A stretch of DNA of 64,000 nucleotides, from NCBI GenBank assembly GCA_016184105.1, contig JACPDI010000031.1, forward strand, positions 70,673-134,672, written 5' to 3'. The stretch is from Acidobacteriota bacterium. GTDB taxonomy: Bacteria > Acidobacteriota > Vicinamibacteria > Vicinamibacterales > 2-12-FULL-66-21. Positions 5,001 through 61,778 of this stretch are shown here, piece after piece (position 1 is the stretch's first letter; every line of letters starts with the position of its first letter). Both the position numbers and the translations under genes were made by a program. The notes below the pieces were generated by a model that was not told the DNA's origin, ran no database searches, and was given only the letters and a program-made list of their open reading frames with translations.

Positions 5001-6052
5001 GCCTCCACCGTGACCACGGGCGCCGAGACCGGCAACGGCGCTTCCCAGGGGTACTCAATCGGCTGTCGCATCGCGTAGCAGGTTTCGATGAGCGCCACCG
5101 ACTTTCGCCCTTCCCCACCGGTCACCCTCGGTGGCCGTCCATCACGAATGGCATCACGGAAGTCCTCCAGTTGACGCGTGCACAGGTCCACGAGGGATGC
5201 GGGAGGGGCTCCACCTGGTTCGATCGGCTTGCCCGCGAGGACCGTGCGCCGATCACCGACGGCGAGGCGCACCGTTGAGTCTGTCTTGGTACCTACCTCG
5301 AGGACGCCGTAATGGCCTTCGAGGAGAGCGGTCCCAGGGAGATCGCGCGTGCGGCTCAGCGCAACCACAGCGCCAACTCCGTCGGGCAGGCCGACGCGGA
5401 TCTCACAGTCCGCCTCGACGCCACCAGCGGCGTCGTCGCGGTAGCTGAGGATCTCACAGTCGCCGAACCACCACACGAGAAGATCGAGGACGTGCGCCCC
5501 CGCGTCGGCGAGGACACCGCCCGCGGGGCGCTTGAACATCGCATCCGAAGCCAGCATCCACCGATATGCGGCGCCTTCGCGAATCTCCACTTTCTTCAAC
5601 CGCCCGATGAGACCTGTATCGATCGCACTCTTCGCGAAACGAAGCGAATCATGGAACCGCCGAAGAAGCCCGACCGCCAGCACGCGACCCGCCGCCTCGG
5701 CGGCGGCGATCATGGCGTCACACTCACCGGCATGGAGGGCCATGGGCTTCTCGACCAGGACATGCACGCCGCCGTCGAGCAATTCCGTCGAGATGTGCGC
5801 GTGGAGGTGATGCGGCACGGCGATGATCGCGGCATCGACACGGCCGATCGCTTCTCGATAGTCGGTACCGGTCGCCGGAACGGCGAACGCGCGAGCCAGG
5901 CCCGCTGCCCGGGGCACATCCGTGTCAATCAGCAGCGTCGTTCGCATGCCGGATATCGCTGCGAGGCTTGGCAGATGGACGAGCTGGGCGACGGCGCCGC
6001 ACCCGATGACAGCCACACGCAAATCGCTCAAGGCAGGACCCCATTGACGCAT
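4997..6052 (-). CDS. Gfo/Idh/MocA family oxidoreductase
   Basis: VAVIGCGAVAQLVHLPSL N-terminal Rossmann fold, EKPMAL motif. First gene of the minus-strand operon 6052->1601. Confidence 0.8.
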   Translation of the reverse strand: MRQWGPALSDLRVAVIGCGAVAQLVHLPSLAAISGMRTTLLIDTDVPRAAGLARAFAVPATGTDYREAIGRVDAAIIAVPHHLHAHISTELLDGGVHVLVEKPMALHAGECDAMIAAAEAAGRVLAVGLLRRFHDSLRFAKSAIDTGLIGRLKKVEIREGAAYRWMLASDAMFKRPAGGVLADAGAHVLDLLVWWFGDCEILSYRDDAAGGVEADCEIRVGLPDGVGAVVALSRTRDLPGTALLEGHYGVLEVGTKTDSTVRLAVGDRRTVLAGKPIEPGGAPPASLVDLCTRQLEDFRDAIRDGRPPRVTGGEGRKSVALIETCYAMRQPIEYPWEAPLPVSAPVVTVEA

Positions 6053-6190: not shown

Positions 6191-7606
6191 TCAGCGCACT
6201 TCGAACGTCGCCACGACCGGCCGGTGGTCCGAAACCGACCCGGTGTCGTAAACCTGCGCGCCCTTCAGAACGAGCGCGGTCGCGCCCTTCGAATAGAAGA
6301 TGTAATCGATCCGGCTGTTGCGCGTATTGCCGGCCTCGTTGCCGGAATATGCCACCGCCGTCCCCGCGCTCTGTGCCACTGCCCAAGCGTCGTAATACGT
6401 GCCGGTCATGCGACCAATCTCGCCGCCACCGGGCCATGTATTGAAGTCCCCTGCGATGAGCCGCTGCTCCGAGAACCCGGACGCCCAGTTCTTCAACTGC
6501 TCCATCTGGGCCGCGCGCTGGCTGCTCGAATCGTCGTCGAGGTGCGTCGAGAACATGTTGACGCTCCGTCCGTTGACGGTGATGGTCACCTGTGCGACCG
6601 ATCTCGTGTAGCTGAGGACGTGCGTGCCGCAGCTCTCGATGGGGATGCGCGACAGCAGCAGGTTCCCCTGTCCCGTCGAGCCACCGTTAATCTGCGCGAA
6701 GCACGTGTACCAGGCCGCGCCCGTCTTGCTCTTCAGCAGGGAGGCGAGTACCGCAGGCTGGTCGGCATTGCCCGTGTAGCCGTTCAGGCGCTCCACTTCG
6801 TTCAGGGACACGACATGTGGACTGATATTCGCGATCCACGTGGCAACGCGGTCCAGGTTGGACACGTTGCTCGTGTCGAGCCCGTGATGAATGTTCCAAT
6901 CCATGAACTTCAGCGTGCTCGAAGGCGATGGCGTCGGATCGGGCGGAGGCGTCGAAGAGGTGCCCAGCACGACCGCCAGCGTCGGCCCGGTGCCGCTGCC
7001 GGCCTCCATCGAATAGAACTCCTTGTACGAGTCGCGCGTGGAGGCCCCTTCGTCGACGAGCAGCACTCTCAGATAGCGCGAGCTGCCGTATGTGCCGCTC
7101 ACGATCTTCTGCACGACGGCGGTGACGTCGTAGGCCACCTTGGAGCCGGCCACGTTGGTGACGGTGGCCTGGCCGATGCGTTCGGCCATGTCGCCGCCCG
7201 GGGTCGACCAGTACGCCGAGGTGCGGCGGATCTTCCACGTCGCCTCGACGTCGGTGTACGGCTGCGACACCCTGTAGGCCGTCAGGGTGCGGCTCTGGCT
7301 GTTGCCGCCGCGGACGGTGAGCGTCAGCCTCGCCGAGCCGATCGTGCTGCCGGCGGCAATTGTGCTGTGCGTGTCGAACTTGAGCAGCACGCGGCGCTTG
7401 TACTCGTCGTTCGTGCTGGCGCGCGTCGCCAGCGTCGTGCTCCGGCCGTAATTGGTGCTGGCGTACGAGCCGCCGCGCAGCACCGTGTCGGCCGCGTCGG
7501 TCAGCACGAGCGATTGTGCCTGCGCGGCGCTCGAGAGCGCGCAGGTGGCGGCCAATGCCGCAAGGATCCTGGTGAGGCGCCGTGCGCCAGTGTGCGTGAC
7601 GTTCAT
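6191..7606 (-). CDS. Secreted endonuclease/exonuclease/phosphatase (EEP) family protein with an N-terminal DNRLRE-like beta-sandwich domain
   Basis: Signal peptide (LAALAATCALSSAAQA). The C-terminal half has WNIHHG, SLNEVE and SDHRPVVATFEV, which are EEP hallmarks. A Pro/Ser/Thr linker joins the two halves. Confidence 0.75.
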   Translation of the reverse strand: MNVTHTGARRLTRILAALAATCALSSAAQAQSLVLTDAADTVLRGGSYASTNYGRSTTLATRASTNDEYKRRVLLKFDTHSTIAAGSTIGSARLTLTVRGGNSQSRTLTAYRVSQPYTDVEATWKIRRTSAYWSTPGGDMAERIGQATVTNVAGSKVAYDVTAVVQKIVSGTYGSSRYLRVLLVDEGASTRDSYKEFYSMEAGSGTGPTLAVVLGTSSTPPPDPTPSPSSTLKFMDWNIHHGLDTSNVSNLDRVATWIANISPHVVSLNEVERLNGYTGNADQPAVLASLLKSKTGAAWYTCFAQINGGSTGQGNLLLSRIPIESCGTHVLSYTRSVAQVTITVNGRSVNMFSTHLDDDSSSQRAAQMEQLKNWASGFSEQRLIAGDFNTWPGGGEIGRMTGTYYDAWAVAQSAGTAVAYSGNEAGNTRNSRIDYIFYSKGATALVLKGAQVYDTGSVSDHRPVVATFEVR

Positions 7607-9461: not shown

Positions 9462-11651
9462 ATGGGCATGCTCGCACGCGCGCTCCGGATGGACCGGCGC
9501 GAACTGGCGTTCCGCGCACGGGTTGCCTCGCGCCAGGCGGCGCAACGAGTCTCTGTCGCCATCCGCACGCCGAAGTGGGACAGCGCCGGCATTGACGGGC
9601 TGCTCGCGGGCGCCGATCGCCGCCGGCTGGGCTCGCATTTTCGTTCGCGTTGCAGGCTCTTTCCGGTTCATCCCACTGACGCCGCCAGGCTGCGTGCGGC
9701 GATGCTCGAGCGGGATCCCGCCGCCTCGGACCACGCGCGCCAGCTCGCCGATCCGATCCTGGCGGGCCGCCTCGACATCCTCGGCTATCGCAATGTCGCC
9801 GTGGGCTCGCCGATCAACTGGCACCGCGATCCCGTCCACGACCGCACCGCGCCGATTCACTTCTGGGCGACCGTCCGGTATCTCGATCCCGCCATCGGCG
9901 ACCACAAGGTCACGTGGGAACTCAATCGGCACCAGCACTGGCTCGTCCTCGGGCGCGCGGCATGGCTGACCGGGGACGTTCGTTATCGTGACGCGATCGT
10001 CACGCAGCTCCGCGACTGGCTCGCGCAGAACCCGCCGCTCATGGGCATCAATTGGGCGAGCATGCTGGAGCTGGCGTTCAGATCGCTCTCATGGCTGTGG
10101 GCGTTGCAGTTCTGCGCGGCGTTCGACGACACGCCGGACGACTGGTTTGCCGAACTCCTCGTCGGACTGGACGCCCAGCTCCGCCACGTCCATGGGAATC
10201 TGTCGTACTACTTCAGCCCGAACACGCACCTGCTCGGCGAGGCGCTGGCGCTGTATGTCGCCGGACGCTCGCTGCCCGAACTGACGCAGGCGACAGACTG
10301 GGTCCGGACCGGGCGCCGCGTGCTGATCGATGAGATCGACCGCCAGGTGCATGCCGATGGCGGGCACGCCGAGCTGTCTGCGCATTACCACCGATACGCG
10401 CTGGACTTTTACCTGCTGGCGCTCTCGATCGCGCGCCTCACCGGCGACACCGGCGCTGAAGGGCGGTTCGAGGAGGTCTCGCGGCGGCTGGCGCGCTACG
10501 CGCGCGCGCTCGCCGACGACAGCGGCCGGCTCCCGCTCATCGGCGATGACGACGGCGGGCAGTTGTTTCCGATCTGCGGCCGCGATCCGGCCGATGCGAG
10601 ACCCTCGCTTGCCTGGGCTGCGGCGCTGCTGGGCGATCCGGCCCTTGCGCCGGACGGCGCGGCTCCGGAGGAGGTTTCGTGGCTCCTCGGGCGCGTTCCC
10701 GACCCGCCAACCGACACGCCGGCGAGCGCGCCAGGGCCCCTCATCCTCGTCTTTCCCGACAGCGGCTACGTGGTCGCACGGACGCTCCGGCGTGACCACG
10801 TGGTGTTCGACGTCGGCCGTCACGGGTTTCTCAACGGCGGCCACGCCCATGCCGATGCGCTCTCCCTCGTCGTCAGCGTGGGAGGACGCGCCGTGCTGAT
10901 CGACCCCGGCACGTCGACCTACACGATGGATGCTGCCCTGCGCGACCGGATGAGGGGCAGCGGCTCCCACAACACGCTGCTCGTCGACGGCCGCCAGCAG
11001 TCAGAACCCTCCGGGCCGTTTCACTGGCGGCGCACTGCCGGAGCGCAGCTCGCGCGCGCAGACACACACCCGCATGGCACCTGGATGTCCGCAGCACACG
11101 ATGGCTACTCCCCGCTCGTGCACCGGCGCGGCGTCTTCCTCTCCGACGACGGGTTGCTGCTCATCGTCGACGCGGTCGACGGAGACGGCGACGTGCTCCA
11201 TACCGCCGAGGTCCGGTGGCACCTGGAACCCTCCTGGGAATACCAGCGGGCGATGCGGGGAGCGAGGTTGATTCACAGTTCACACGCCGAGCTTCGCGTC
11301 AGCAGCACCGCGACACTCCACGCGGTCAAAGGGGGGGAAGGCGGTGGCTGGTGCGCGCCGGTGTACGGCCAGCTGCGGCCGACGTGGATGCTCCTCGGGA
11401 CCCATCGGGCGCCGGCCCCCTTCGAGATCGTGACGGCGCTCTGCGAGGGCTCTGTCCCGCCGAGCCTCGCTGTTCGCGCGGCGGACTCAGAAGACGGCCG
11501 CCGTCTCACGATTACCATCGGGCGCGAGGGTCGCGCCGACGTCTTCGAGATTCACGGTCACGAGCTCCGCCACCACAGCCGCACGGTGGCCCCGTCCGTG
11601 CATCTCCATGCGCCTGCCGCGGCTTCGCCGGCAGGGCGTCCGCGAGGGTAA
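9462..11651 (+). CDS. Heparinase II/III-like (alginate-lyase superfamily) protein
   Basis: DHKVTWELNRHQHWL, NWASMLELAFRSLSWLWAL and GHAHADALS motifs are typical of heparinase II/III-like proteins found in EPS loci. Confidence 0.75.
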   Translation: MGMLARALRMDRRELAFRARVASRQAAQRVSVAIRTPKWDSAGIDGLLAGADRRRLGSHFRSRCRLFPVHPTDAARLRAAMLERDPAASDHARQLADPILAGRLDILGYRNVAVGSPINWHRDPVHDRTAPIHFWATVRYLDPAIGDHKVTWELNRHQHWLVLGRAAWLTGDVRYRDAIVTQLRDWLAQNPPLMGINWASMLELAFRSLSWLWALQFCAAFDDTPDDWFAELLVGLDAQLRHVHGNLSYYFSPNTHLLGEALALYVAGRSLPELTQATDWVRTGRRVLIDEIDRQVHADGGHAELSAHYHRYALDFYLLALSIARLTGDTGAEGRFEEVSRRLARYARALADDSGRLPLIGDDDGGQLFPICGRDPADARPSLAWAAALLGDPALAPDGAAPEEVSWLLGRVPDPPTDTPASAPGPLILVFPDSGYVVARTLRRDHVVFDVGRHGFLNGGHAHADALSLVVSVGGRAVLIDPGTSTYTMDAALRDRMRGSGSHNTLLVDGRQQSEPSGPFHWRRTAGAQLARADTHPHGTWMSAAHDGYSPLVHRRGVFLSDDGLLLIVDAVDGDGDVLHTAEVRWHLEPSWEYQRAMRGARLIHSSHAELRVSSTATLHAVKGGEGGGWCAPVYGQLRPTWMLLGTHRAPAPFEIVTALCEGSVPPSLAVRAADSEDGRRLTITIGREGRADVFEIHGHELRHHSRTVAPSVHLHAPAAASPAGRPRG

Positions 11652-27663: not shown

Positions 27664-28646
27664 TCCCTCCGCGCGGCGGGCGCGGCGCGTAGCGCGAGCC
27701 CCTGCGCAATCTTGGCCTTCAGTTTCCTGATGAAGCGGGCGCGATCCGCGGCGGCGTATCCGCCCGCACGGAACGCGTCGTCGAGCTGGCGATCGGTGAG
27801 CTGCGACGCGAGATCGCACGCCCAGGCGACGTCTTCCTGCGAAAGGTCGGCGAGCAGCTCCTGGTGACGCCCGCGGTACTCGAACTGCACGCGGCCGTCC
27901 TTCACGCCCGTGATGAATCCATGCGACTCGAAGTCGCGCACGTTGTTGCGCGTTCCGTGCGGGAAGCGTCGGCTCTTGCCGAACGCGGCGCCGAGGTCGC
28001 GCACGACATACCGGAGCGCGGGGCCGTCGCCGGGATCGGCGACCTGGTACACCTTGTTGTTCGTGGTCTTGAGATCCCAGTTGTTGATGAGGAGGTTGAG
28101 CACCACCAGGCCCTTGAACGGCCGCGTGCCGACGAAGGGGTTCTGCTGCCAGCTCCAGTCCGCGAGCTTTCGCGCGTTCGGCAGTTCCGGGCGGAAGCGC
28201 CCGGCGGGCTTCGGGCCCGGCCGCGGGCCGCCGTCGAGGCGCCAGTGCCGGACCAGATACATGGGGGGCTGGTGATAGCCAACCGCCCAGAGCAGCCGCG
28301 ACGCGGCGATCTCGCTCTGGACCTCGAGCCCCTGCTTCACGCTCCACTCGCGCCCGCCGGCGTCCACCACGTCGTAGCCGCCGCTGTAGCCGAGCACGTC
28401 GAGTCTCTTGAAGCGGAAGGTCGCGTCCTCGGGAGGGAGCAGCCCGGGACCGCCGGGCCCGTGGAAGAGATCGCGGGAGGACAGACCTGCCGGCGGAATC
28501 CACAGCTCCGCGAGTTGCCGCGCCGCGATCGGCCCCGTCGCGGTGGACCGCATCGCCGGCGCGCAGCCTGAAAACGATCCGACGAGAAGGAGCAGCAGCA
28601 CCATCACGCTTCGCCGCTGCCGGCCGCTCAGCACCCGCGCGGGCAC
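27660..28646 (-). CDS. Lipoprotein with protein-kinase-like motifs (paralog B)
   Basis: Lipobox LVGSFSGC. It has WSVKQG (beta3-Lys-like), EIAASRL (alphaC-Glu-like), NNWDLKTTNN (DxKxxN catalytic-loop-like) and RDLGAAFG (DFG-like). Collinear homology to the next gene. Confidence 0.55.
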   Translation of the reverse strand: MPARVLSGRQRRSVMVLLLLLVGSFSGCAPAMRSTATGPIAARQLAELWIPPAGLSSRDLFHGPGGPGLLPPEDATFRFKRLDVLGYSGGYDVVDAGGREWSVKQGLEVQSEIAASRLLWAVGYHQPPMYLVRHWRLDGGPRPGPKPAGRFRPELPNARKLADWSWQQNPFVGTRPFKGLVVLNLLINNWDLKTTNNKVYQVADPGDGPALRYVVRDLGAAFGKSRRFPHGTRNNVRDFESHGFITGVKDGRVQFEYRGRHQELLADLSQEDVAWACDLASQLTDRQLDDAFRAGGYAAADRARFIRKLKAKIAQGLALRAAPAARRE

Positions 28647-29599
28647 GCCGCGAGCCCGTCCGCGATCTTTTCCTGCAGGCGTGCGATAAAGCGGCCGGCG
28701 ATCGCATCGGGATATCCCGCGGCGCGAAACGCGTCGGCAAATTGCCGGTCCGTGATCCGGGCCAGCCGTTCGGAGATCCAGCGGATGTCGCGCCGGCGCA
28801 GCTGATTCAGCAGCTCGTCGTGGCGCCCCTGGTCGCCGAAGCGCGGCCGGTCACCATCGAACGCGATGATGAAGGGATGCGCCTCGAAGTGATCGGGATT
28901 GTTGCGGGAGCCGTCCGGCCACCGCGGCCGGCCGAAGGTGGCGCCGAGATCGCGCGCCACGTACCAGCGGCGCGCGCCGTCGCGCGGCTCGCCGAACTCG
29001 TAAATCTTGTTCTGCGAGGGCTTGATGTCCCAGTTGTTCAGGATGACGGCGAGTGCAAGCAGCCCGCGGTACGGCTGCGTGCCGACGAAGGGATTCCGGT
29101 GCAGCGACCATTCCCCGATGACCTTGCCGATCTCGGGACGGAACCGTGCGGAGTTCTGCGCCCCGGACGAGGGCCCCCCTTCCACGCTCCAGTGCGCGAG
29201 GAAGTAGGTCGGCGGCTGGCGATAGCCGGCAGCCCAGTAGATGCGCGAGGCGACGACCTCGGTCTGGGCCTCGGGGCCTTGCTTCGCGCTCCATTCGCGA
29301 CCCTGCGCGTCTTCGACGGTCAAGCCCGGGCTGAACCCGCCGGCTTTTTCCTCCTTGAACGTGAACGTGGCGCCATTCCGGGGCGCGAGCGCCCGACCGC
29401 CCGGCCCCCAGAACAGGTCGCGTGCCGCGATGTTCGACGGCTCGACCCACAGCTCGGCCATCTGCGCCGGCGCCGGCGGGCGCGGCGCAGTCCGGCGAAT
29501 CCTGGGCTCGCCGCACGCCGCGGCCGTGCAGGCGCAGAGCACGACGAGGAGGGCCGTCGGCGGCCGACGGCAGAGATGGAACGACATCGCGCCCACCAT
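28628..29599 (-). CDS. Lipoprotein with protein-kinase-like motifs (paralog A)
   Basis: Signal/lipobox LLVVLCACTAAAC, then WSAKQG, EVVASRI, NNWDIKPSQN and RDLGATFG. Shares the C-terminal ITDRQFADAFRAAGY...FI.RL..KI motif with paralog B. Confidence 0.55.
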   Translation of the reverse strand: MVGAMSFHLCRRPPTALLVVLCACTAAACGEPRIRRTAPRPPAPAQMAELWVEPSNIAARDLFWGPGGRALAPRNGATFTFKEEKAGGFSPGLTVEDAQGREWSAKQGPEAQTEVVASRIYWAAGYRQPPTYFLAHWSVEGGPSSGAQNSARFRPEIGKVIGEWSLHRNPFVGTQPYRGLLALAVILNNWDIKPSQNKIYEFGEPRDGARRWYVARDLGATFGRPRWPDGSRNNPDHFEAHPFIIAFDGDRPRFGDQGRHDELLNQLRRRDIRWISERLARITDRQFADAFRAAGYPDAIAGRFIARLQEKIADGLAACPRGC

Positions 29600-29669
29600 A
29601 CGGACGAGGCGATCTGCAAGGTTCGTACTCGCGCCCCCAACACCTCAACCGCAGAAGGCGCAAACGCGC

Positions 29670-32600
29670 TCAGTGAAAGTCGCGCGCCTCGACATCAGGG
29701 CCGCCGCCGCCGAGACCGTACAACCGCTCAGCTTTAATGGACGTCACTCCTTCCTGGATTTGCAGTGTGCCTTCCACCAGCAGGTAAGCCTCGCCGACCA
29801 CCGAACGCCGCTGCTTGGCGAACAGATCCGGCCGGACGATGATGTTGGCGATGCCCGTTTCGTCTTCAAGCGTGAGAAAGACGAACCCTTTCGCGGTGCC
29901 CGGCCGCTGGCGCGCGATGACGGCGCCCGCGACGCGCACGCGGCGGCCGTGCCGCCCCTGCGGCAGATCGCAGGCGCGCAGCACGCCGCGCAGCGCCAGC
30001 TCCTGGCGCCTGAGCGACATCGGATGCGGCCCGATCGTGAGACCGGTGCCCGCATAGTCCGCCTCGATGCGCTCGGCAAGCGTCATCCGGGCCAGCGGAC
30101 TCGCGTCGGCGGGGTCGGGAACCTGGGACCCGGGATCCGAAAACAGCTCACCCGCCGGCCGCATCGCGCGCTCGATCTGCCACATCGCGGCGCGCCGCTC
30201 GTAACCGAACGCGTTGAGCGCGCCGATGTCAGCCAGCGCGCGCAGCTCGTCGCGATGCACGCCGCTGCGCGCCACGAAGTCGTCCAGGGAGGTGAAGCGC
30301 GAAGGCGGCCGGCTGCACGTGGCACGTCGCACGTCGCACGTGGCACGTGGCACGTGGACCGCCCACTCGTGCGCGCAGACGCTACAGAAGCACGTCGTCC
30401 CCACGCGCTCGATCATCGCTTCGTCGTCCGAACCGCACTTGGGGCAAATGTCACGTGCGACGTGCGACGTGCCACGGTGCGACGTGCGATCGTGCGACGT
30501 GCGATCGTGCGACGTGCGATCGTGCGACGTGCGATCGTGCGGCGGACCGGCCTGCTCGATGGCCTTTCCCGCCTCCGCGCGCAGCCCATTGACGTATCGC
30601 AGCCCGAGGCGCACGCGCCCGTCCTCCTCGATGCTGCAGCCCCACCCCGACACCTGCACGTCGATCGGCGCGAAGCGCACGCCGCGGCGCTGCGCATCCT
30701 TGACGAGCGTGGCCGGCGAGTAGAACCCCATCGGCTGGTTGTTCAGCATCGCGGTGTAGAACGCCGCCGGGTAATGCGCCTTCAGGTAGGCGCTGGCATA
30801 GACGAGCAGCGCGAAGCTCGCGGCGTGCGACTCAGGGAAGCCGTAGAGCGCGAACGACGTGATCGCGCGGATGATCTCCTCCGCCGCGTCGTCACCGATC
30901 CCCTGCTTCGCGATGCCATCGCGCAGCTTCTGTTCGATCACGCGCATCCGCTTCTCCGAGCGCTTGAAGCCGAACGCGCGGCGCAGCTCCTCCGCTTCCC
31001 CTCCCGTGAATCCCGCCGCGACCATCGCCATGCGCAGGAGCTGCTCCTGGAAGAGCGGCACGCCGAGCGTGCGCTCGAGGATCGGCGCGAGCGACGGGTG
31101 CGGGTACACCACCGGCTCCACGCCGCGGCGCCGCTTCAGGTACGGGTGCACCATCTGGCCGACGATCGGACCGGGCCGGATGATCGCCACCTCGACGACG
31201 ATGTCGTAGAAACGCTCGGGCTTCATCCGCGGCAGCGTGGCCATCTGGGCGCGTGACTCCACCTGGAAGATGCCGATCGTGTCCGCCTCCTGCAGCATGC
31301 GGTAGACCGCGGGGTCGTCGGGGGGGAGGTGGACCAAATCCAGAGGGGCCGCAGGCGCTCCTCTGGCCTCTGAATTCACAATCGTCAGCGCATCTTGAAG
31401 CACCGCCATCATCCCCAGTCCAAGCAGGTCAACCTTCACGATCCCCATGTCCGCGCAGTCGTCCTTGTCCCACTGCGCGACGACGCGGCCGGGCATGCTG
31501 GCGTTTTCGAGGGGAACGACTTCATCGAGCCGCCCCTGGCAGACGATCATGCCGCCGGAGTGCTGCCCGAGGTGCCGCGGCAGATCGTGGATGCGCTCCC
31601 ACAGGTGGCCGAACGTGCGCAGCGCCGCGTTGGCGGGATCGAGCCCCGCGTCGCGCAGGTGCCGCTCGAGCGTGTCCTTCGGGTCGATCCACTCGAAGGG
31701 GTTCATCACCTTCGCCAGGCGGTCCACCTCGCCGGGCTCCAGCCCGAGGACCTTGCCGATATCGCGCGCCGCGCTGCGCCCGCGATAGGTGATGACGTTG
31801 GCGGTCATTGCCGCACTCTGCCCTTCGGGGGCCGCACTCTGCCCTTCGGGGGGCGCGCCACGCTTCCCGTAGCGCTCGTAGACGTACTGAATCACTTGCT
31901 CGCGGCGGTCGCCGCTCGGCAGATCGAGATCGATGTCGGGCCACTCGCCGCGCTCCTCGGAAAGAAACCGTTCGAAGAGCAAATCCATCCCGACCGGGTC
32001 CACCGCGGTGATGCCCAGGCTGTAGCAGACCGCGCTGTTGGCCGCCGAGCCGCGCCCCTGCACGAGGATCCCGTGCTGCCGGCAGTAGTTCACGATGTCC
32101 CAGACGATGAGGAAGTACCCGGCGAGATCGAGCTTCTCGACGAGCGACAGCTCGCGCTCGATCTGCGCGCGCGCGCGCGCGTGGTACGGCCGATAGCGCT
32201 CGCGCGCCCCCGCGTCCGTGATCTTCCGCAGGAACGAGCCCATCGTCTCGCCGGCGGGCACGGGGTACTCGGGAAAGCGGTAGCCGAGATCGGCCATCGT
32301 GTACTGCAGGCGGTCCGCCAGATCGCGCGTCGCCGCCACCGCGTGCGGCAGATCGTGGAAGAGCACCGCCATCTGCTCCGGCGACTTGAGGTACCGCTCC
32401 GCGTTCACGCTGAGGCGCCGGCCTGCGCGCGCGATCGTCGTCTTGTGACGGAGGCACGTGAGGACGTCGTACAGCGGGCGATCGGCCGGCTCGGCAAAGC
32501 GCACGCCGTTGGTCGCGATGACGGGGACGTGAAACGCCGAGGCCAGCGACAGCAGCGCGTGGTTGTCCGATTCCTCGTCGCGGCGCAGATGGCGCTGCAG

Positions 32601-33122
32601 CTCGACGTACACGCTGCCGCGCCCGAACATGCCGACGGCGCGGTCGACGAGCCCGCCCACGCCGTGCCGCGGCCCCTGCAGCGCCTCGCGCCCGATGAGC
32701 GCGACGAGCCCCGCCGTGCGGCCGTCGAGCTCCTCGAGGTCGAGCGACCCCTCGCCTTTCGGCGCGCGGAGCTTCATCTGCGTGATCAGGCGGCAGAGAT
32801 TCTTGTAGCCAATGGCGGACTCGACGAGGACCGGGAGACGCCAGAGGGAGAAAAAGGGGTCGGGAGCCTTTTTCGAGGCGTCAACGGCGAAAAAGGCTCC
32901 CGACCCCTTTTTCTCCCTGATCGTGATCTCCGCGCCGACAATCGCGCGCAGCCCCGCTTTCTTCGCCGCCAGGTGAAATCGCGGCGCGCCGTAGAAGCCG
33001 TCTCGATCGACGAGGGCGAGCGCCGGATAGCCGAGCGCCGCCGCGCGGTCGACGAGCGCTTCGGGCAGCGAGGCGCCGTCGAGGAATGAAAAGGCCGAAG
33101 CGGAATGGAGTTCGATATACAC
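29670..33122 (-). CDS. dnaE2: Error-prone DNA polymerase III alpha subunit DnaE2 (ImuC), with several in-frame insertions
   Basis: GTG start, then MYIELHSASAFSFLDGAS PHP domain. Pol III alpha core motifs run throughout and a C-terminal OB region is present. Sits downstream of imuA-imuB. Confidence 0.9.
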   Translation of the reverse strand: MYIELHSASAFSFLDGASLPEALVDRAAALGYPALALVDRDGFYGAPRFHLAAKKAGLRAIVGAEITIREKKGSGAFFAVDASKKAPDPFFSLWRLPVLVESAIGYKNLCRLITQMKLRAPKGEGSLDLEELDGRTAGLVALIGREALQGPRHGVGGLVDRAVGMFGRGSVYVELQRHLRRDEESDNHALLSLASAFHVPVIATNGVRFAEPADRPLYDVLTCLRHKTTIARAGRRLSVNAERYLKSPEQMAVLFHDLPHAVAATRDLADRLQYTMADLGYRFPEYPVPAGETMGSFLRKITDAGARERYRPYHARARAQIERELSLVEKLDLAGYFLIVWDIVNYCRQHGILVQGRGSAANSAVCYSLGITAVDPVGMDLLFERFLSEERGEWPDIDLDLPSGDRREQVIQYVYERYGKRGAPPEGQSAAPEGQSAAMTANVITYRGRSAARDIGKVLGLEPGEVDRLAKVMNPFEWIDPKDTLERHLRDAGLDPANAALRTFGHLWERIHDLPRHLGQHSGGMIVCQGRLDEVVPLENASMPGRVVAQWDKDDCADMGIVKVDLLGLGMMAVLQDALTIVNSEARGAPAAPLDLVHLPPDDPAVYRMLQEADTIGIFQVESRAQMATLPRMKPERFYDIVVEVAIIRPGPIVGQMVHPYLKRRRGVEPVVYPHPSLAPILERTLGVPLFQEQLLRMAMVAAGFTGGEAEELRRAFGFKRSEKRMRVIEQKLRDGIAKQGIGDDAAEEIIRAITSFALYGFPESHAASFALLVYASAYLKAHYPAAFYTAMLNNQPMGFYSPATLVKDAQRRGVRFAPIDVQVSGWGCSIEEDGRVRLGLRYVNGLRAEAGKAIEQAGPPHDRTSHDRTSHDRTSHDRTSHRGTSHVARDICPKCGSDDEAMIERVGTTCFCSVCAHEWAVHVPRATCDVRRATCSRPPSRFTSLDDFVARSGVHRDELRALADIGALNAFGYERRAAMWQIERAMRPAGELFSDPGSQVPDPADASPLARMTLAERIEADYAGTGLTIGPHPMSLRRQELALRGVLRACDLPQGRHGRRVRVAGAVIARQRPGTAKGFVFLTLEDETGIANIIVRPDLFAKQRRSVVGEAYLLVEGTLQIQEGVTSIKAERLYGLGGGGPDVEARDFH
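30315..30356 (+). repeat. Heptamer tandem array (GCACGTS x6) inside dnaE2
   Basis: gcacgtg gcacgtc gcacgtc gcacgtg gcacgtg gcacgtg, 42 nt. On the coding strand it translates as VHVPRATCDVRRATC. Confidence 0.9.
30452..30540 (+). repeat. Inverted-orientation heptamer / 15-mer tandem array (SACGTGC units; gacgtgcgatcgtgc x4) inside dnaE2
   Basis: cacgtgc gacgtgc gacgtgc cacggtgc, then four copies of gacgtgc-gatcgtgc. Encodes (HDRTS)x4. The units are the reverse complement of those at 30315-30356. Confidence 0.9.
31810..31851 (+). repeat. Perfect 21-bp tandem duplication inside dnaE2
   Basis: gccgcactctgcccttcgggg x2, encoding PEGQSAA-PEGQSAA. Confidence 0.9.
32846..32917 (+). repeat. 72-nt perfect palindromic element inserted in frame in dnaE2
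   Basis: 28-nt arms gggagaaaaaggggtcgggagccttttt / aaaaaggctcccgacccctttttctccc around a 16-nt loop. 24 codons (EKKGSGAFFAVDASKKAPDPFFSL). Confidence 0.9.
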
Positions 33123-33191
33123 GAAGGTTCACACGAAGGTTCACACGAAGGTTCACGCGAAGGCTCACGCGAAGGCTCGCACGAAGGTTCG
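33120..33191 (+). repeat. 12-bp tandem array x6 abutting the dnaE2 start codon (imuB-dnaE2 spacer)
   Basis: cacgaaggttca x3, cgcgaaggctca, cgcgaaggctcg, cacgaaggttcg. On the coding strand the units read TGAACCTTCGTG, and the last GTG is the dnaE2 start. Confidence 0.9.
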
Positions 33192-33248
33192 ACCGCGCGC
33201 TCTGAATCCTCGCCGGAACCACCGTTCGAACCCTCGTGAGAACCTTCG

Positions 33249-34721
33249 TCAGTCCAGAATCCCCTCTACAAACCACCTGTCCTCGTGACGATCGCGGCAG
33301 ATCCGGTAGGCCGCGCCGTCGGCGAGCGTTACGTCGTATTCATCGCGGTCCCAGCAGGCGCCGGGGTCGCGGCCGCTCCACCAGCCGCCGGACGATCGCC
33401 ACGGCCCGGCGCACTGCTCCACCGCGCCGCCGCGGATGCCAATCCGATCCGTGGTCACGCGCGCCACCCGCTCGCCCTCGAGCGCCACGCGCGCGACAAC
33501 GGGGATGCGAAAGCGTCGCAGAACAGGTCTCGCCTTCGCGCTTCGCGCTTCGGCGCAGCTGGCGCCCCTGTTCGCGCTTCGCGCTTCGGCGGGCGCGAAC
33601 GGCGCGAGCGTGAACGCGTCCGGCGCGTGCGAGTCGAGGAGCACCGGCGAGCCCACGCGTCCCTCTCCCATCAGCGCCGTCAGCCTCGACACCACCGTCG
33701 CGATCGTTTCGGGCTGCGTCCCGGCGCGCTCGAGCAGCGAGAACTGGACGATGCGTCCCGGGGCCGGCTCGAGCCGGACGGCGATACGATCGATGCCCGC
33801 CGGCGGCGGATGGGACTCGAGATCGAGCAGGATGAGCGTGCGCAGCACGCGCGCCTCGCGCATCGGCGCGGGCAGCTCGATGCGCCGCACGTGCGTCTCG
33901 CGCGTCTTCGTCCCGTCCGCATCCACGCGGGCGGTCACGAGCGTGAGCGTCGTCTCGAGAACGGCTGCGCCGCGATCGGCGCGCTCGAGCGCGGCGCTCA
34001 ACGGATCGAGCAGCCGCGTGAGCACGAACGACACCGGCTGCAGCGCGTCGAGCGGCCACTCGAGATCGAAGGACGCCTCGAAGCGCGCCTCGTCGAGGAC
34101 CGGCACGAGCGGCTGCGTGTCGAGGCCGCGCGCGAACCGCTGCAGCACGACGCCGGCCTGGCCGAGCCGCGCCGCCAGATCGGCCGCGGGCAGCGCCGCG
34201 AGATCGCCGAGCGTGACCAGCCCCCATCGGCGCAGCGTGGCAAGCTCGGTGCACGCGCCGCCCGGCTCGCCGCAACGGCCGGGCGCGCCGGCCAGGCGGC
34301 ACAACGCGCAGGCGCGAACAAGGGGCCGGGAGCCTTTTTTCTGCAGCCGCGGCGGTAAAAAGGCTCCCGGCCCCTTGTTCGCCGCCAGCGTGTCGAACAC
34401 CTCCAGCGACAGCGCGCCCACGGCGGCCGCGGTCCTCCCCGGCAGGACGACGCTGTACGGCTGCGCGATGGCGAGCAGGAGGGCCGCCGTGCGGGAGGGC
34501 GCGACCGCCACCGACACGGTCACGTGCGGCGTGCGACGTGCGGCGTGCGACAGTTCTTCCGCGATCGCCGCGGCATCGCCAACGATGCGCGTGAGGCCGG
34601 CGGTGTCGATGAGCACCAGCCGCCCGCCGAGCTGCGGCTCGACGCGCGGCGAACACGCCTGTGCCGCGGCAAGCAGCGCAGCGGCATCCTTACTGTCCGG
34701 GCTGAACAGTGCGGCGAACAC
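33249..34721 (-). CDS. imuB: ImuB, Y-family-polymerase-like mutasome subunit
   Basis: Position between imuA and dnaE2, and VFAALFSP...LVLIDTAGLTRIVG N-terminus. I propose the GTG at 34721, preceded by GGAGG-containing repeats. The ORF-track start at 34829 lies inside imuA. Confidence 0.75.
   Translation of the reverse strand: MFAALFSPDSKDAAALLAAAQACSPRVEPQLGGRLVLIDTAGLTRIVGDAAAIAEELSHAARRTPHVTVSVAVAPSRTAALLLAIAQPYSVVLPGRTAAAVGALSLEVFDTLAANKGPGAFLPPRLQKKGSRPLVRACALCRLAGAPGRCGEPGGACTELATLRRWGLVTLGDLAALPAADLAARLGQAGVVLQRFARGLDTQPLVPVLDEARFEASFDLEWPLDALQPVSFVLTRLLDPLSAALERADRGAAVLETTLTLVTARVDADGTKTRETHVRRIELPAPMREARVLRTLILLDLESHPPPAGIDRIAVRLEPAPGRIVQFSLLERAGTQPETIATVVSRLTALMGEGRVGSPVLLDSHAPDAFTLAPFAPAEARSANRGASCAEARSAKARPVLRRFRIPVVARVALEGERVARVTTDRIGIRGGAVEQCAGPWRSSGGWWSGRDPGACWDRDEYDVTLADGAAYRICRDRHEDRWFVEGILD
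33535..33606 (+). repeat. Imperfect 36-nt tandem duplication inside imuB
   Basis: ttcgcgcttcgcgcttcggcg occurs at 33535-33555 and at 33571-33591. Encodes the AEARSA...AEARSA repeat. Confidence 0.75.
34314..34382 (+). repeat. 69-nt perfect palindromic element inserted in frame in imuB (same family as 32846-32917)
   Basis: 26-nt arms gcgaacaaggggccgggagccttttt / aaaaaggctcccggccccttgttcgc around a 17-nt loop. 23 codons (ANKGPGAFLPPRLQKKGSRPLVR). Confidence 0.9.
34521..34548 (+). repeat. Heptamer array (cacgtgc ggcgtgc gacgtgc ggcgtgc) inside imuB
   Basis: Same SRCGTGC unit family and orientation as 30452-30540. Confidence 0.8.
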
Positions 34722-35493
34722 TCCCCGAACCTCCGTGCGCACCTCCGTGCGAACCTCCGTGCGAAGCCCGCCCCAGCACGCGCGCCTGCGGCGCAATCCC
34801 GTCGAACAGCCGCGCGCGCGCCGACGCACCGCGCCACCGGGGCGCGGCGGCGCCGCCGAGCACGATCGTCACGCCCCCCGCGCTGCGGCCGGCGCGCTCG
34901 GGCGCGACGAGCAGCGCGGCGGTGGATCCCCCTTCGATCAGCCGCGCCAGGCGAAGCCAGGTCGTGAACGGCAGCCGCCGCAGGACGGGCGGCGGCACGT
35001 CGGCGAGATCGCAGACCGCGAGGCCGAAGGCGCGCGACTCCAGCACGACGGTGAACGCCTTGAGCGCGCGCTCCACTGCACGCCAAAGCGATGAGGTGTT
35101 TCCCGGCGCCGCGTGCCCGCTCGCGCGGATCGCCTCGACGCTGGCCGCCACGCCGCGCACCCACAACAGGTTCCCGAGCTGCACCCCCGTGGCCGCCGCC
35201 GACTCCACATCGAACCGATCCAGCGCGTCCACCAGCGCCGCCGCCCCGCCGGCCGCGGTCGCCGACGCAAGCGCGGCACACATGAGCGTGGTCCGCCCGG
35301 TGGAGCGCGCTCCCGCAATCTCCGACAGCTCACCCCGCGGCAATCCACCGCCAAGCCGCGCGTCGATCTCGGCATGGCCGAGCGGCAGCAGCGGCCGCCC
35401 GGCGTCGAGCGCCGGGCGCAGGTGCGTCAGCGTGGCGTCGAGCTTTTTCGCGCGAAGCAGCGATTCGAGGTGGGCGCGGGCCGCGGCAGCCAT
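34690..35493 (-). CDS. imuA: ImuA, RecA/SulA-like mutasome subunit
   Basis: LPLGHAEIDARLGGGLPRGELSEIAGARSTGRTTL Walker-like segment. First gene of the cassette. ATG at 35493. Confidence 0.75.
   Translation of the reverse strand: MAAAARAHLESLLRAKKLDATLTHLRPALDAGRPLLPLGHAEIDARLGGGLPRGELSEIAGARSTGRTTLMCAALASATAAGGAAALVDALDRFDVESAAATGVQLGNLLWVRGVAASVEAIRASGHAAPGNTSSLWRAVERALKAFTVVLESRAFGLAVCDLADVPPPVLRRLPFTTWLRLARLIEGGSTAALLVAPERAGRSAGGVTIVLGGAAAPRWRGASARARLFDGIAPQARVLGRASHGGSHGGAHGGSGSVRRTVQPGQ
34727..34762 (+). repeat. 12-bp tandem array x3 at the imuA 3' end / imuB start
   Basis: gaacctccgtgc gcacctccgtgc gaacctccgtgc. The coding strand reads GCACGGAGGTTC, so each unit contains GGAGG. Encodes (SHGG)x3 at the ImuA C-terminus. 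The unit resembles the reverse complement of the 33120-33191 unit. Confidence 0.85.
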
Positions 35494-35538
35494 GGTGTCC
35501 GGTCGAGGTGTTTCGCTTTTATTTCGCCTGCCGGACGC

Positions 35539-35568
35539 AGTATAAACCACCCAGCGACGCTGGGGCAA
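35539..35568 (-). promoter_or_regulatory. Candidate sigma70-type promoter of imuA with a palindrome in the spacer
   Basis: The minus strand reads TTGCCC-N18-TATACT. The spacer contains the inverted repeat CCAGCG-t-CGCTGG (35551-35563). The -10 lies about 46 nt upstream of the imuA ATG. Confidence 0.3.
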
Positions 35569-35578
35569 CATCGCCGCG

Positions 35579-35630
35579 GAACACGCAGAACACGCGGAAA
35601 AATACGGGATCCTGCGTGTTCAGCGCGTTC
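35579..35630. promoter_or_regulatory. Inverted repeat with GAAC/GTTC tetrads in the imuA / MFS divergent region (candidate operator)
   Basis: GAACACGCAGAAC ... 26 nt ... GTTCAGCGCGTTC. The inner arms GAACACGCAG / CTGCGTGTTC are perfectly complementary over 10 nt. Confidence 0.35.
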
Positions 35631-35655
35631 CGCGGCGCAGCCCTCTCCTGCTAAG

Positions 35656-36930
35656 ATGATTTCCTTGTCCTCTGACGCCCTGAAAACCGAAGGTGAGGCC
35701 GCCCCTTCGGTTCCGAACCACGGGTTCATCCGCCGGACCGCCGCCGCCTTCACTTACCGCGATTTCCGCATCCTCTGGACAGGCGCCTTCATGTCCACGG
35801 TCGGCACGTGGATGCAGAAGGTCGCGCAAAGCTGGCTGGTCCTCTCGCTCACCGGGTCGTCATTCTTCCTGGGGCTCGACGATTTCCTCGCGCAGCTTCC
35901 CATCCTGCTCCTGACGCTGATTGGCGGCGTGATTGCCGATCGCTACGACCGGCGCCGGCTCCTCATCGGCTCGCAGTACGTGCAGATGACGGCCGCGTTC
36001 ATCCTCACGGCGCTCGTCTACTGGCAGGTCGTGGAGCTGTGGCACATCCTCGCGCTGTCGTTCATCACCGGCGTCGCGCAGGCGTTCGGCGGCCCGGCGT
36101 ACCAGTCGCTGATCCCGTCGCTCGTGGATCGCAAGGACCTGCCCAACGCGATCGCGCTCAACTCGATCCAGTTCAACCTGGCGCGCGTGTTCGGGCCGAT
36201 CCTCGCCGGCGCCACGCTCGCCGCGTTCGGCACGGCGATGTGCTTCGCGGTCAACGGCGTTTCGTTCCTCATCGTGATCGTCGCGCTGATGGCGCTCGGC
36301 GTGAAACACATCCCGCCGCTGACACGCCAGCCGATGATGGACGAGCTGCGCGGCGGCATCGCGTACGCCCGCAGCGAGCCGGCGATCATCTCGCTCACCC
36401 TCCTCGGCTTCGTCACGACGTTCCTGGGGCTGCCGCTGCTGACGCTGCTGCCGGTCTTCGCGCGCGACGTCTTTCACGGCGGTGTCGGCCGCTACACGCA
36501 GATGATGGCCTTCTCCGGCATCGGCGCCGTCTCCGGCGCGCTCATCGTCGCGTGGCTGGGACGGTTCAGGCACATGGGGCTGGCGACGCTGCTCCTGCAG
36601 ATCGTGTTCGGGCTGTTGCTCGTCGGCTTCGCGCTGTCGCGCCTGCTGTGGCTGAGCAACGTCCTGCTCTTCGTGGCGGGCGCCGCGCTGATCGCGGTGT
36701 TTTCGTTCACGGCCTCCCTCGTGCAGCTGATCGTGCCGGATCACCTCCGTGGCCGTGTCGTCAGCATTTACATGGTGGCGTTCCGCGGCGGCATGCCGCT
36801 TGGCGGGCTGGCCGCGGGCACGATGGCCAGCATCACCTCGGCGCCGACCGCGCTGGTGACGGGAGGAACGCTGCTCGTCGCGATCGCGGTCTATTACCTG
36901 TTCCGCGGCCACGGCCTCCGGGAGTTGTAA
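35656..36930 (+). CDS. MFS transporter (EntS/MFS_3-like)
   Basis: FRILWTGAFMSTVGTWMQKVAQSWLV and GGVIADRYDRRRLL, with about 12 predicted TM segments. ATG at 35656. Confidence 0.8.
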   Translation: MISLSSDALKTEGEAAPSVPNHGFIRRTAAAFTYRDFRILWTGAFMSTVGTWMQKVAQSWLVLSLTGSSFFLGLDDFLAQLPILLLTLIGGVIADRYDRRRLLIGSQYVQMTAAFILTALVYWQVVELWHILALSFITGVAQAFGGPAYQSLIPSLVDRKDLPNAIALNSIQFNLARVFGPILAGATLAAFGTAMCFAVNGVSFLIVIVALMALGVKHIPPLTRQPMMDELRGGIAYARSEPAIISLTLLGFVTTFLGLPLLTLLPVFARDVFHGGVGRYTQMMAFSGIGAVSGALIVAWLGRFRHMGLATLLLQIVFGLLLVGFALSRLLWLSNVLLFVAGAALIAVFSFTASLVQLIVPDHLRGRVVSIYMVAFRGGMPLGGLAAGTMASITSAPTALVTGGTLLVAIAVYYLFRGHGLREL

Positions 36931-36939
36931 GAGATCGGA

Positions 36940-37656
36940 TCAGACAGCCAGGATCCAGTACAGACCGAGGCCGATCGATGCCACCGCCATCAGCAGCGCG
37001 GCGCCGCGGCCGAGCCGCGCGACGACGCGCGTGGAGAGCGTGCGCGCGAGGGCCACGCCAAACAGCGACATCGAGATGAGGATGCCGACGGCGAACAGCA
37101 CGATGAGCAGCACGATCTGCGGGATCGCGGCCGCCGCCGTCGAGCCGCCGAACGGCGCGAACGTGGCCAGCGCGCGCAGGCTGCTGATGGCGAAGACCGC
37201 GCCAAGCAGGGCGGGCAGCTGCGAGTGCGCGACGCCGTGCGCCTGCGGGCGGCCGAGATGCAGGTGCCATGCGCCCGGATCGTGGCTCTGCGGGTGCGCG
37301 TGCGCGTAGAAGCGGCCGGAAACCGCCGCCATCAGCGCCGTGACGCCGAGGGCGACCAGCAGCACTCCCCCCAGCTGCTCTCCGCCGCGCTCGACGGTCT
37401 GCGGAATCGTCCACCCGGCCACCACGACGAGGCTCGCGCCAAATGCGAGCACCAGCGCGTGGCCGGCTGCGAATCGGACGGCGACCGCAAGCGCGCGCGC
37501 GCGACGGACGGCAACCGTTTCTTCGCCGCGGACCGTCAGCGCGGCGATGGCCATGAGATGGTCGGCGCCGAGCCCGTGCAGGAAGCCGAGCACGAGCGCC
37601 GAAGCAATCAGAAACACCGGGTTATTGTAGCCGCAGGTCCCATCGAACGGGGACAT
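36940..37656 (-). CDS. NicO/RcnA/UreH-like putative nickel/cobalt transporter
   Basis: LGFLHGLGADHLMAI (HxxxADH-type) in TM1, a His-rich loop YAHAHPQSHDPGAWHLHLGRPQAHGVAHS, and about 6 TMs. Confidence 0.5.
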   Translation of the reverse strand: MSPFDGTCGYNNPVFLIASALVLGFLHGLGADHLMAIAALTVRGEETVAVRRARALAVAVRFAAGHALVLAFGASLVVVAGWTIPQTVERGGEQLGGVLLVALGVTALMAAVSGRFYAHAHPQSHDPGAWHLHLGRPQAHGVAHSQLPALLGAVFAISSLRALATFAPFGGSTAAAAIPQIVLLIVLFAVGILISMSLFGVALARTLSTRVVARLGRGAALLMAVASIGLGLYWILAV

Positions 37657-61713: not shown

Positions 61714-61717
61714 GCGA

Positions 61718-61778
61718 AAGGGGGACAGTCACACTTTCCTCGGCAGGGCCAGGAAAGTGTGACTGTCCCCCTTTTTTC
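61718..61778 (+). terminator. Rho-independent terminator between convergent gltA and the LeuA-like gene
   Basis: Perfect 22-bp stem (aagggggacagtcacactttcc / ggaaagtgtgactgtccccctt), a 12-nt loop, and a T6 run at 61772-61777. Confidence 0.85.

Follow-up and report, generated by a model that had tools for sequence, protein, structure and literature searches.

A palindromic element in frame within an acidobacterial imuB gene: a likely passenger copy of a dispersed repeat family

How a perfect palindrome comes to lie inside an intact protein-coding gene, and whether it serves that gene, is the question raised by a 64,000-nt stretch of DNA from an Acidobacteriota bacterium (contig JACPDI010000031.1, positions 70,673-134,672), called the window hereafter; all coordinates count within it. 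The element occupies 34314-34382 in imuB, the middle gene of an imuA-imuB-dnaE2 cassette, and a sister element lies in the adjacent dnaE2. A first-pass annotation had seen in this pair an argument for selection on the reading frame or for a function targeted to this operon. In our assessment, the imuB palindrome is likely to be a doublet-form, intragenic copy of a dispersed family that resembles both the repetitive extragenic palindromic (REP) sequences with their doublets, the REPINs, and the Rickettsia palindromic elements (RPEs), carried as a passenger that is tolerated in a disordered loop. The copy is probably neutral. An operon-targeted function is not supported, as the family is abundant, dispersed and found in frame in many unrelated hosts. 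The acidobacterial repeats apparently constitute an undescribed, new family of an already known kind; an earlier description was not found in the literature by sequence-string and keyword searches, the former giving irrelevant eukaryotic matches.

The imuB palindrome and its insertion site

The imuB element measures 69 nt. Its left arm (34314-34339, 26 nt, GCGAACAAGGGGCCGGGAGCCTTTTT) is perfectly complementary to the right arm (34357-34382, AAAAAGGCTCCCGGCCCCTTGTTCGC), its exact reverse complement, and a 17-nt loop (34340-34356, TCTGCAGCCGCGGCGGT) separates the two; no strand is assigned to these parts. Read on the minus strand, the element encodes the 23-residue, Gly/Pro/Lys-rich peptide ANKGPGAFLPPRLQKKGSRPLVR (ImuB residues about 114-136), and the imuB open reading frame (ORF) remains intact, so that arms, loop, length and frame are as first described. 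The spacer differs in each copy of the family. Two longer copies (at the fetched loci L038 and L040) have an inner stem, GCAGAAATTG|AAAAAGGCTCCC, to which the imuB spacer is similar on the minus strand (...GCAGA|AAAAAGGCTCCC); compared with L038, the spacer has the appearance of one half of that longer stem (GCAGAAATTG|AAAAAGG). RNA folding of the element with its flanks, a check proposed at the outset, gave a strong hairpin of -72.1 kcal/mol (z = -8.75). An Rfam scan of 28000-37000 matched no known RNA family and returned just sub-threshold eukaryotic microRNA models, which any long hairpin is expected to give.

The sister element in dnaE2 (32845-32918, likewise unstranded) is a 74-nt palindrome with 31-nt perfect arms and a 12-nt loop, which encodes REKKGSGAFFAVDASKKAPDPFFS within a loop of the PHP domain. 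It reads GAGAAAAA-GGGGTCGGGAGCC...GGCTCCCGACCCC-TTTTTCT, the architecture of a bidirectional terminator (A-tract, stem, T-tract). The 20-nt arm core AAGGGGYCGGGAGCCTTTTT occurs four times in the window, once in each arm of the two elements, and did not occur in shuffles, which confirms that both belong to one family. A family covariance model (E<=1) found no third copy within the 64 kb, in agreement with the core count and with the original impression of two copies only. The dnaE2 element had been given as 72 nt and both lengths as multiples of three; both ORFs do stay open, but the perfect dnaE2 palindrome is 74 nt long and the multiple depends on the ends chosen. The two elements are identical in six independent assemblies (L045-L050) of a ~99%-identical strain and are therefore real, which rules out an assembly artefact. 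No target-site duplication was seen: the flanks of the imuB copy (...GCGCAGGC| and |CGCCAGCG) form no direct repeat, and neither do those of the dnaE2 copy (...GACGCCAG| and |CTGATCGT).

The site in ImuB is hypervariable among homologues. In an alignment of 21 ImuB proteins, that of the window and 20 homologues, almost every lineage has a length and a sequence of its own in the segment that holds the insert. Modelled with AlphaFold2 from this alignment, the insert is a coil between two helices, with a predicted confidence (pLDDT) of 58-71 over the insert (below 50 at residues 119-121) and of 87-95 in the flanking helices. Among the relatives that lack the element, L044 is the closest (ImuB 85% identical); in place of the 72 nt of the window it carries 18 nt (ACTACGGGACCCCGTTTT). 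These 18 nt form a small palindrome in their own right, with A/T flanks, and therefore probably represent a single unit in decay, not a vacant site. L044 was therefore rejected as a clean empty site, from which the exact insertion ends and any duplication are undefinable. In L051, tandem 9-mers stand at the position of the window insert. The dnaE2 loop between EITIR and LWRLPVLV is as variable, with the 23-residue element in the window, an unrelated 47-residue insert in L044, a 15-mer tandem array in L051 (7740-7870) and 10 residues in L052 (DnaE2 residues about 68-80).

The 47-residue insert of L044 carries an imperfect inverted repeat of its own (L044 1935-2075), and the DnaE2 proteins of L051 and L052 have large lineage-specific inserts after residue about 620. 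Directly after the insert in ImuB (~34180-34310, residues about 137-160, alignment columns 181-222) follows a Cys-rich segment, C-A-L-C ... C-G-x-P-G-G-A-C-T-E-L, which is conserved in the subclade P0001-P0014 and absent from more distant homologues. Judged from its sequence, it may be a small metal-binding insertion.

The host gene imuB (33249-34721, minus strand) counts 490 codons when read from GTG, the start codon of the P0001 cluster, and its homologues are named ImuB in the sources. It sits between dnaE2 (29670-33122, minus strand), an error-prone DNA polymerase III alpha paralogue with the Pfam domains PHP, DNA_pol3_alpha, finger, HHH_6 and OB, and an imuA-like gene of RecA_N fold (34690-35571, minus strand), the first of the cassette, whose syntenic counterpart in L045 matches Pfam RecA_N.

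A dispersed family of palindromic repeats

The family was traced by scanning a genome collection of species representatives for the inner stem GGGAGCCTTTTT-N5-35-AAAAAGGCTCCC. Among the 43 loci obtained, 34 came from Vicinamibacterales or from 'Acidobacteria bacterium' metagenome-assembled genomes (MAGs). Nine non-acidobacterial matches (Clostridia, Arenibacter, Planctomycetota, Hydrogenedentes, Anaerotruncus) had short loops, were without outer arms and were treated as unrelated hairpins. Exact-core copies number 10-13 in each of two Vicinamibacterales MAGs and 5 in a third. A metagenome scan with the type-B outer arm (AAGGGGNCGGGAG...CTCCCGNCCCCTT) gave at least 120 contigs; among the matches listed, the G+C content is 45-70% and the commoner consensus is GAAAAAGGGG[T/A]CGGGAGTCTTTT...AAAAGACTCCCG[A/T]CCCCTTTTTC. 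A search of a protein database with a 71-residue concatenate of element peptides gave 6 candidates only. This census of other genomes and metagenomes, of the kind that the first-pass annotation had proposed as a check, thus showed copies that are abundant, dispersed and not operon-specific.

Family elements are 50-85 bp long and consist of two inverted arms of ~22-30 nt, made of an A-run, a G+C-rich core and a T-run, which enclose a spacer of low conservation. The consensus of the arms is GAAAAAGGGG[T/A]CGGGAG(TC/CC)TTTT, with the variant AAAAGGCTCCGGGAGCCTTTTT. Two arm types can be told apart: type A (AAAAGGCTCC|GGGAGCCTTTTT), in which each arm is palindromic by itself, and type B (AAAAAGGGG[T/A/C]C|GGGAGCCTTTTT), which includes the window copies, L030/L042 and L038/L040. 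Doublets and single units both exist; in the same loci, the covariance model recovered 5 more diverged doublets and 3 single units (L035:7772, L033:7574 and L021:5696). Extra copies, other than those used as seeds, occur at ~1 per 50 kb in both data sets of fetched loci, which predicts ~1.3 per 64 kb, and two copies in the window are therefore about as expected. A second copy within a few kb was found at 5/33 and 6/80 loci.

Outside the window, 21 of the 139 evaluated copies (~15%) lie within one continuous coding frame and 118 are extragenic. The intergenic members stand mostly 4-15 nt past a stop codon or between convergent genes, and their loop and total lengths are unconstrained. At least 13 hosts besides the two window genes could be identified with Pfam, 12 of them outside the mutasome. 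They include GltB (insert inside GATase_2), PheT, an Hpt-REC-HD regulator (in a linker), an ABC ATPase (between the signature motif and Walker B), an ATP-grasp ligase, a Ser/Thr kinase-WD40 protein, HemC, pyruvate kinase (in the inter-domain linker), UvrA (L114, in the DNA-binding domain), a CheA-like kinase and a MiaB-like enzyme. Most inserts fall between Pfam domains, in inter-domain linkers and surface loops. The mutasome cassette is present in just one of the 160 element-bearing loci from other genomes, L036 (Vicinamibacterales MAG MFD02809.bin.1.263). Its imuB, recognized by tblastn, carries a type-A copy (DSGSLFPSHHLKKAPGVL, 5448-5498) in a C-terminal linker, at a position different from that of the window copy; a Pfam search gave no match for either imuB. 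The adjacent L036 dnaE2 shows frame changes in tblastn, which may be long-read indel errors or mark a pseudogene. In L114, the UvrA-like ORF has its copy at 9503-9554 and a weaker second one at 7406-7460, ~2 kb downstream in the same open frame, which echoes the double REP inserts published for uvrA genes.

These in-gene copies bear directly on the reading frame. The arms are free of stop codons in all six frames, and each window element is open in 5/6 frames. Among 19 in-gene copies (the two of the window and 17 others) the three left-arm frames, which read EKGVGSLF, KKGSGVF and KRLREPF, are used 6, 8 and 5 times; this about equal use indicates that no particular peptide is favoured. As the arms are stop-free, all frames are used and intergenic lengths are unconstrained, frame preservation is an expected survivorship filter and nothing special to the two window copies. 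The preservation of the frame is itself real.

Conservation resides in the pairing of the arms. In an alignment of 32 copies, in which the invariance of the inner stem is a product of the search pattern, 93% of stem cells are paired and 11 pairs have changed on both sides (61 cells); these values were matched by none of 500 shuffles, and every slid control fell far below them. No two aligned copies have the same spacer. Rapid change could be followed in L035 and L003, orthologous 8-kb regions of two MAGs with 96% identity. Their in-frame ABC ATPase copy (L035 4473-4531, L003 4173-4243) differs at 15/68 positions (22%) and its adjacent flanks at 3/58, so that the element changes ~5-fold faster; three of the differences are double changes that preserve arm complementarity. 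A second orthologous site (L035 7772-7804, L003 877-927) holds a self-complementary monomer in L035 and a dimer in L003, and within either genome the sequence fits the partner with which it pairs. The elements thus appear as old residents that change fast and concertedly, which fits hairpin-templated correction or selection on the hairpin. Folding of the sense and the antisense RNA of 33 orientable copies showed no asymmetry (19 vs 13, p = 0.45; G-U pairs 22 vs 28); nothing points to selection on the sense transcript specifically.

Known systems and alternative explanations

Three readings of the element were dropped: a CRISPR, as there is no array; an integron attC site, as there are no R''/R' cores; and a LexA box, as the GAAC/GTTC spacings are 5, 8 or 9 nt and the box needs 7.

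The closest parallels are the REP sequences and the REPINs, which RAYT transposases mobilize. REPINs are inverted REP doublets that form hairpins with less conserved spacers, in which compensatory changes are common and of which singlets are remnants (Bertels and Rainey, 2011; PMC3116915). A catalogue of intragenic REPs lists insertions in frame in repair genes, DnaE2 among them (Di Nocera et al., 2013; PMC3733652). The acidobacterial family shares with REPs and REPINs a short palindromic unit in many dispersed copies per genome, an inverted doublet hairpin with a spacer less conserved than the arms and compensatory changes, singlets beside doublets, local clustering and a preference for sites just past the end of genes. 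A further likeness is that a minority of copies is in frame in genes, published REP hosts including DnaE2, UvrA and tRNA synthetases. The differences lie in the location, the arms and the hosts: the window copies are intragenic and not extragenic, and an intragenic share of ~15% is high for REPs; the acidobacterial arm is composed of an A-run, GGGG[T/A/C]CGGGAG or GGCTCCGGGAGCC, and a T-run; and the hosts are Vicinamibacterales and other Acidobacteriota.

A likeness by behaviour is found in the RPEs. Ogata and co-workers reportedly described in 2000 the elements RPE-1 to RPE-8, inserted in frame in functional protein-coding genes of Rickettsia. RPEs are interpreted as selfish DNA, persisting at sites where the harm is small, and the peptides they add occupy surface or linker positions. 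In-frame insertion in intact, probably functional genes is common to both families. RPEs are longer (about 100-150 bp for RPE-1), conserved over their full length and confined to Rickettsia and relatives, whereas the acidobacterial elements have 50-85 bp and an unconserved spacer and belong to a free-living, high-G+C soil lineage. Membership is not claimed, since the nearest named homologues and all true genome matches are from Vicinamibacterales or Acidobacteria.

MITEs, or miniature inverted-repeat transposable elements, such as Correia/NEMIS, RUP, ERIC and Nezha, are also small and non-coding, with terminal inverted repeats, form hairpins, can be co-transcribed and are occasionally in frame. 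They normally possess a conserved interior, target-site duplications and a recognizable parent insertion sequence, whereas the window copies are without flanking duplication and the interior differs in every family copy. Bidirectional intrinsic terminators resemble the dnaE2 copy and many intergenic members in their A-tract, G+C-rich stem and T-tract. The imuB copy, in contrast, is placed inside an ORF and followed by TTGTTCGC, the stems of 22-31 bp are much longer than is typical, and the hairpins form a repeated family and have not evolved locally.

For a passenger of this kind, persistence in imuB would follow from stop-free arms, a net length that keeps the frame and a peptide placed in a hypervariable, poorly ordered loop. 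Arm complementarity would be kept by hairpin-templated correction on single-stranded DNA or by selection on the hairpin as a substrate, while spacers would drift or be remodelled by deletions at the palindrome centre. The weakest step is the spread itself, for which, by analogy, an HUH/Y1 transposase of the RAYT/TIRYT type may act on single-stranded DNA hairpins without target-site duplication. The neighbouring dnaE2 copy would reflect family clustering together with insertion-tolerant loops in both proteins, so that no mutasome-specific function is needed.

Several observations weigh against this interpretation. Neither the GTAG nor the CGTC tag that marks described REP superfamilies is present at the ends of the window copies or in the family consensus. 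A scan for the HUH...Y motif of a cognate transposase in ~1 Mb of fetched loci gave two RAYT/TIRYT-like ORFs, neither of which is flanked by family arms; the one in L108 lies 40 nt from a family copy, the only one to adjoin a copy, yet is flanked by a different repeat, GGGGACAGTCACC, which fits the published TIRYT motif GGGGWSAS. A clean pair of filled and empty sites was not recovered, as every comparable orthologous site is occupied in both genomes. The fetched loci were required to hold an exact inner or outer stem, and the family consensus is in part shaped by the search patterns; the census covered genomes other than that of the source, and metagenomes. Mutasome or repair genes host 4 of the 23 in-frame copies (the two window copies, L036 imuB and L114 uvrA), and the 21 independent in-frame hosts include one imuB and one uvrA, more than gene length alone would predict, a residual hint of some link. 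Lastly, 7 of the 12 distinct tandem arrays of the window lie in the 5.9-kb cassette, which makes up 9% of its length (binomial P = 3e-5). These arrays are at 30315-30357, 30453-30541, 31810-31856, 34092-34143 and 34522-34551, together with those at 33119-33249 and 34726-34765.

Among the alternatives, an RNA element acting in cis fares best, although we consider it improbable. The hairpin would have been selected in the operon because it is cut by RNase III, blocks ribosomes or ends transcription within the gene in a translation-dependent manner, and both hairpins would hold the error-prone polymerase cassette low unless translation is efficient. The great stability of the fold speaks for it, as do the terminator-like build of the dnaE2 copy (A5, G+C stem, U5), the presence of two copies in one operon and the intergenic members, which by their position past stops or between convergent genes are plausibly terminators or stabilizers elsewhere. 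However, the same hairpins occur in frame in housekeeping genes without shared regulation (gltB, pheT, pyk, hemC), stability and G-U pairs show no sense-strand bias, the U-tract after the imuB copy, UUGUUCGC, is poor, and a consensus terminator scan, with its loop limit of 8 nt, flags neither copy. Moreover, the corresponding sites of relatives hold tandem 9-mers, 15-mers or an unrelated 47-residue insert, so that the operon has not conserved the hairpin as such.

Slightly less credit can be given to the idea that the hypervariable imuB and dnaE2 loops of Vicinamibacterales are, beyond mere tolerance, places where hairpin and tandem repeats preferentially land or are amplified. It is based on the two palindromes and the concentration of arrays in the operon, the other repeats that relatives carry at the same ImuB and DnaE2 positions, the third copy in L036 imuB and the REPs reported in DnaE2 and repair genes of other phyla. 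The cause might be that during SOS the DNA of these sites is often single-stranded or subject to template switching; or else the hairpins might adjust how strongly the error-prone polymerase is expressed, for instance via translation-dependent termination or RNase III cleavage. The repeat enrichment was not significant in relatives, the operon flanks of L051 and L052 being equally repeat-rich.

A local origin of the palindromes is a shade more doubtful still. They would have been made or amplified in place by template switching or snap-back synthesis at quasi-palindromes, possibly by error-prone polymerases during SOS, which would turn the operon into a self-inflicted repeat hotspot. Such a process would account for arms that are perfect out to copy-specific outer bases, for compensated changes that accumulate quickly in place, for the monomer-dimer polymorphism at one orthologous site and for the tandem arrays, one of which varies in copy number: its 21-mer unit, encoding PEGQSAA, is present twice in the window and three times in the 99%-identical strain L045. 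On the other hand, the 20-nt arm core is common to well over a hundred unrelated loci in different genomes, which requires common descent or copying between loci and not independent local origin, and the flanks of relatives' operons are as rich in tandem repeats. Template switching explains the likeness of the arms, and for this it is kept in the passenger model, but not the origin of the sequence.

ImuB is a scaffold protein of the ImuA'-ImuB-DnaE2 mutasome and has flexible regions. Co-option of the 23-residue segment as a functional linker or interaction motif of ImuB, and likewise of DnaE2, for instance in mutasome assembly, is in keeping with this general knowledge, with inserts unchanged in the six assemblies and with left arms translated in the same frame in both window copies (K-G-x-G-A-F), but is very unlikely, given that the right arms of these copies are read in different frames, that family-wide the three frames are about equally used and the peptides differ accordingly, that the 85%-identical L044 ImuB is without the insert and distant homologues carry unrelated sequence at the site, and that model confidence over the insert is low.

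Neighbouring repeats and significance

The cassette and its surroundings hold further repeats. In DnaE2, 7/15-mers of the ACGTGCG type encode HDRTS x4, and a related heptamer array, GCACGTG x13, is found in imuB of L052. In the imuB-dnaE2 spacer (33119-33249), a 12-mer (ACACGAAGGTTC) is repeated six times in tandem and a partly inverted set comes next, which gives an inverted repeat of 47 nt and 77% complementarity. An array of nearly reverse-complementary 12-mers (CGAACCTCCGTG x3.3) stands at the 3' end of imuA, just before the imuB start (34726-34765), so that inverted arrays bracket imuB. L044 (1545-1727) has the same bracket with 13-mers, GGTTCTGCCGGTT x4 and then CGGTAGAACCACT x5. The GGTTC/GAACC core shared by the array units and their Shine-Dalgarno-like GGAGG/GAAGG suggest control of translation or through an operator.

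Immediately upstream of the imuA-like ORF, and also upstream of the only promoter-like match of the region (35568-35539, minus strand), lies a 24-nt, 92% complementary inverted repeat (35572-35637, CGCCGCGGAACACGCAGAACACGC / GCGTGTTCAGCGCGTTCCGCGGCG). The acidobacterial and alphaproteobacterial LexA box has a 7-nt GAAC/GTTC spacing. The repeat is a candidate SOS operator, though its spacing is 5 nt. A different perfect palindrome (61717-61774), with 24-nt arms (AAAGGGGGACAGTCACACTTTCCT), a 10-nt loop and a following T6, is located exactly between convergent ORFs that end at 61713 and 61779. Its core GGGGACAGTCAC, which fits the published TIRYT motif GGGGWSAS, equals the inverted repeats that flank the RAYT/TIRYT-like gene of L108 (276-287 and 1046-1057), and the palindrome may belong to a second, transposase-linked repeat family of this genome.

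The L035/L003 pair offers a compact and clean data set for the study of hairpin-templated concerted evolution. For annotation, the family adds Gly/Pro/Lys-rich segments of 15-30 residues to many proteins of abundant soil Acidobacteriota; unrecognized, such segments can pass for lineage-specific motifs or break domain models. Why repair and mutagenesis genes keep appearing as hosts is a question that was first raised in 2013 (PMC3733652) and that can be tested.

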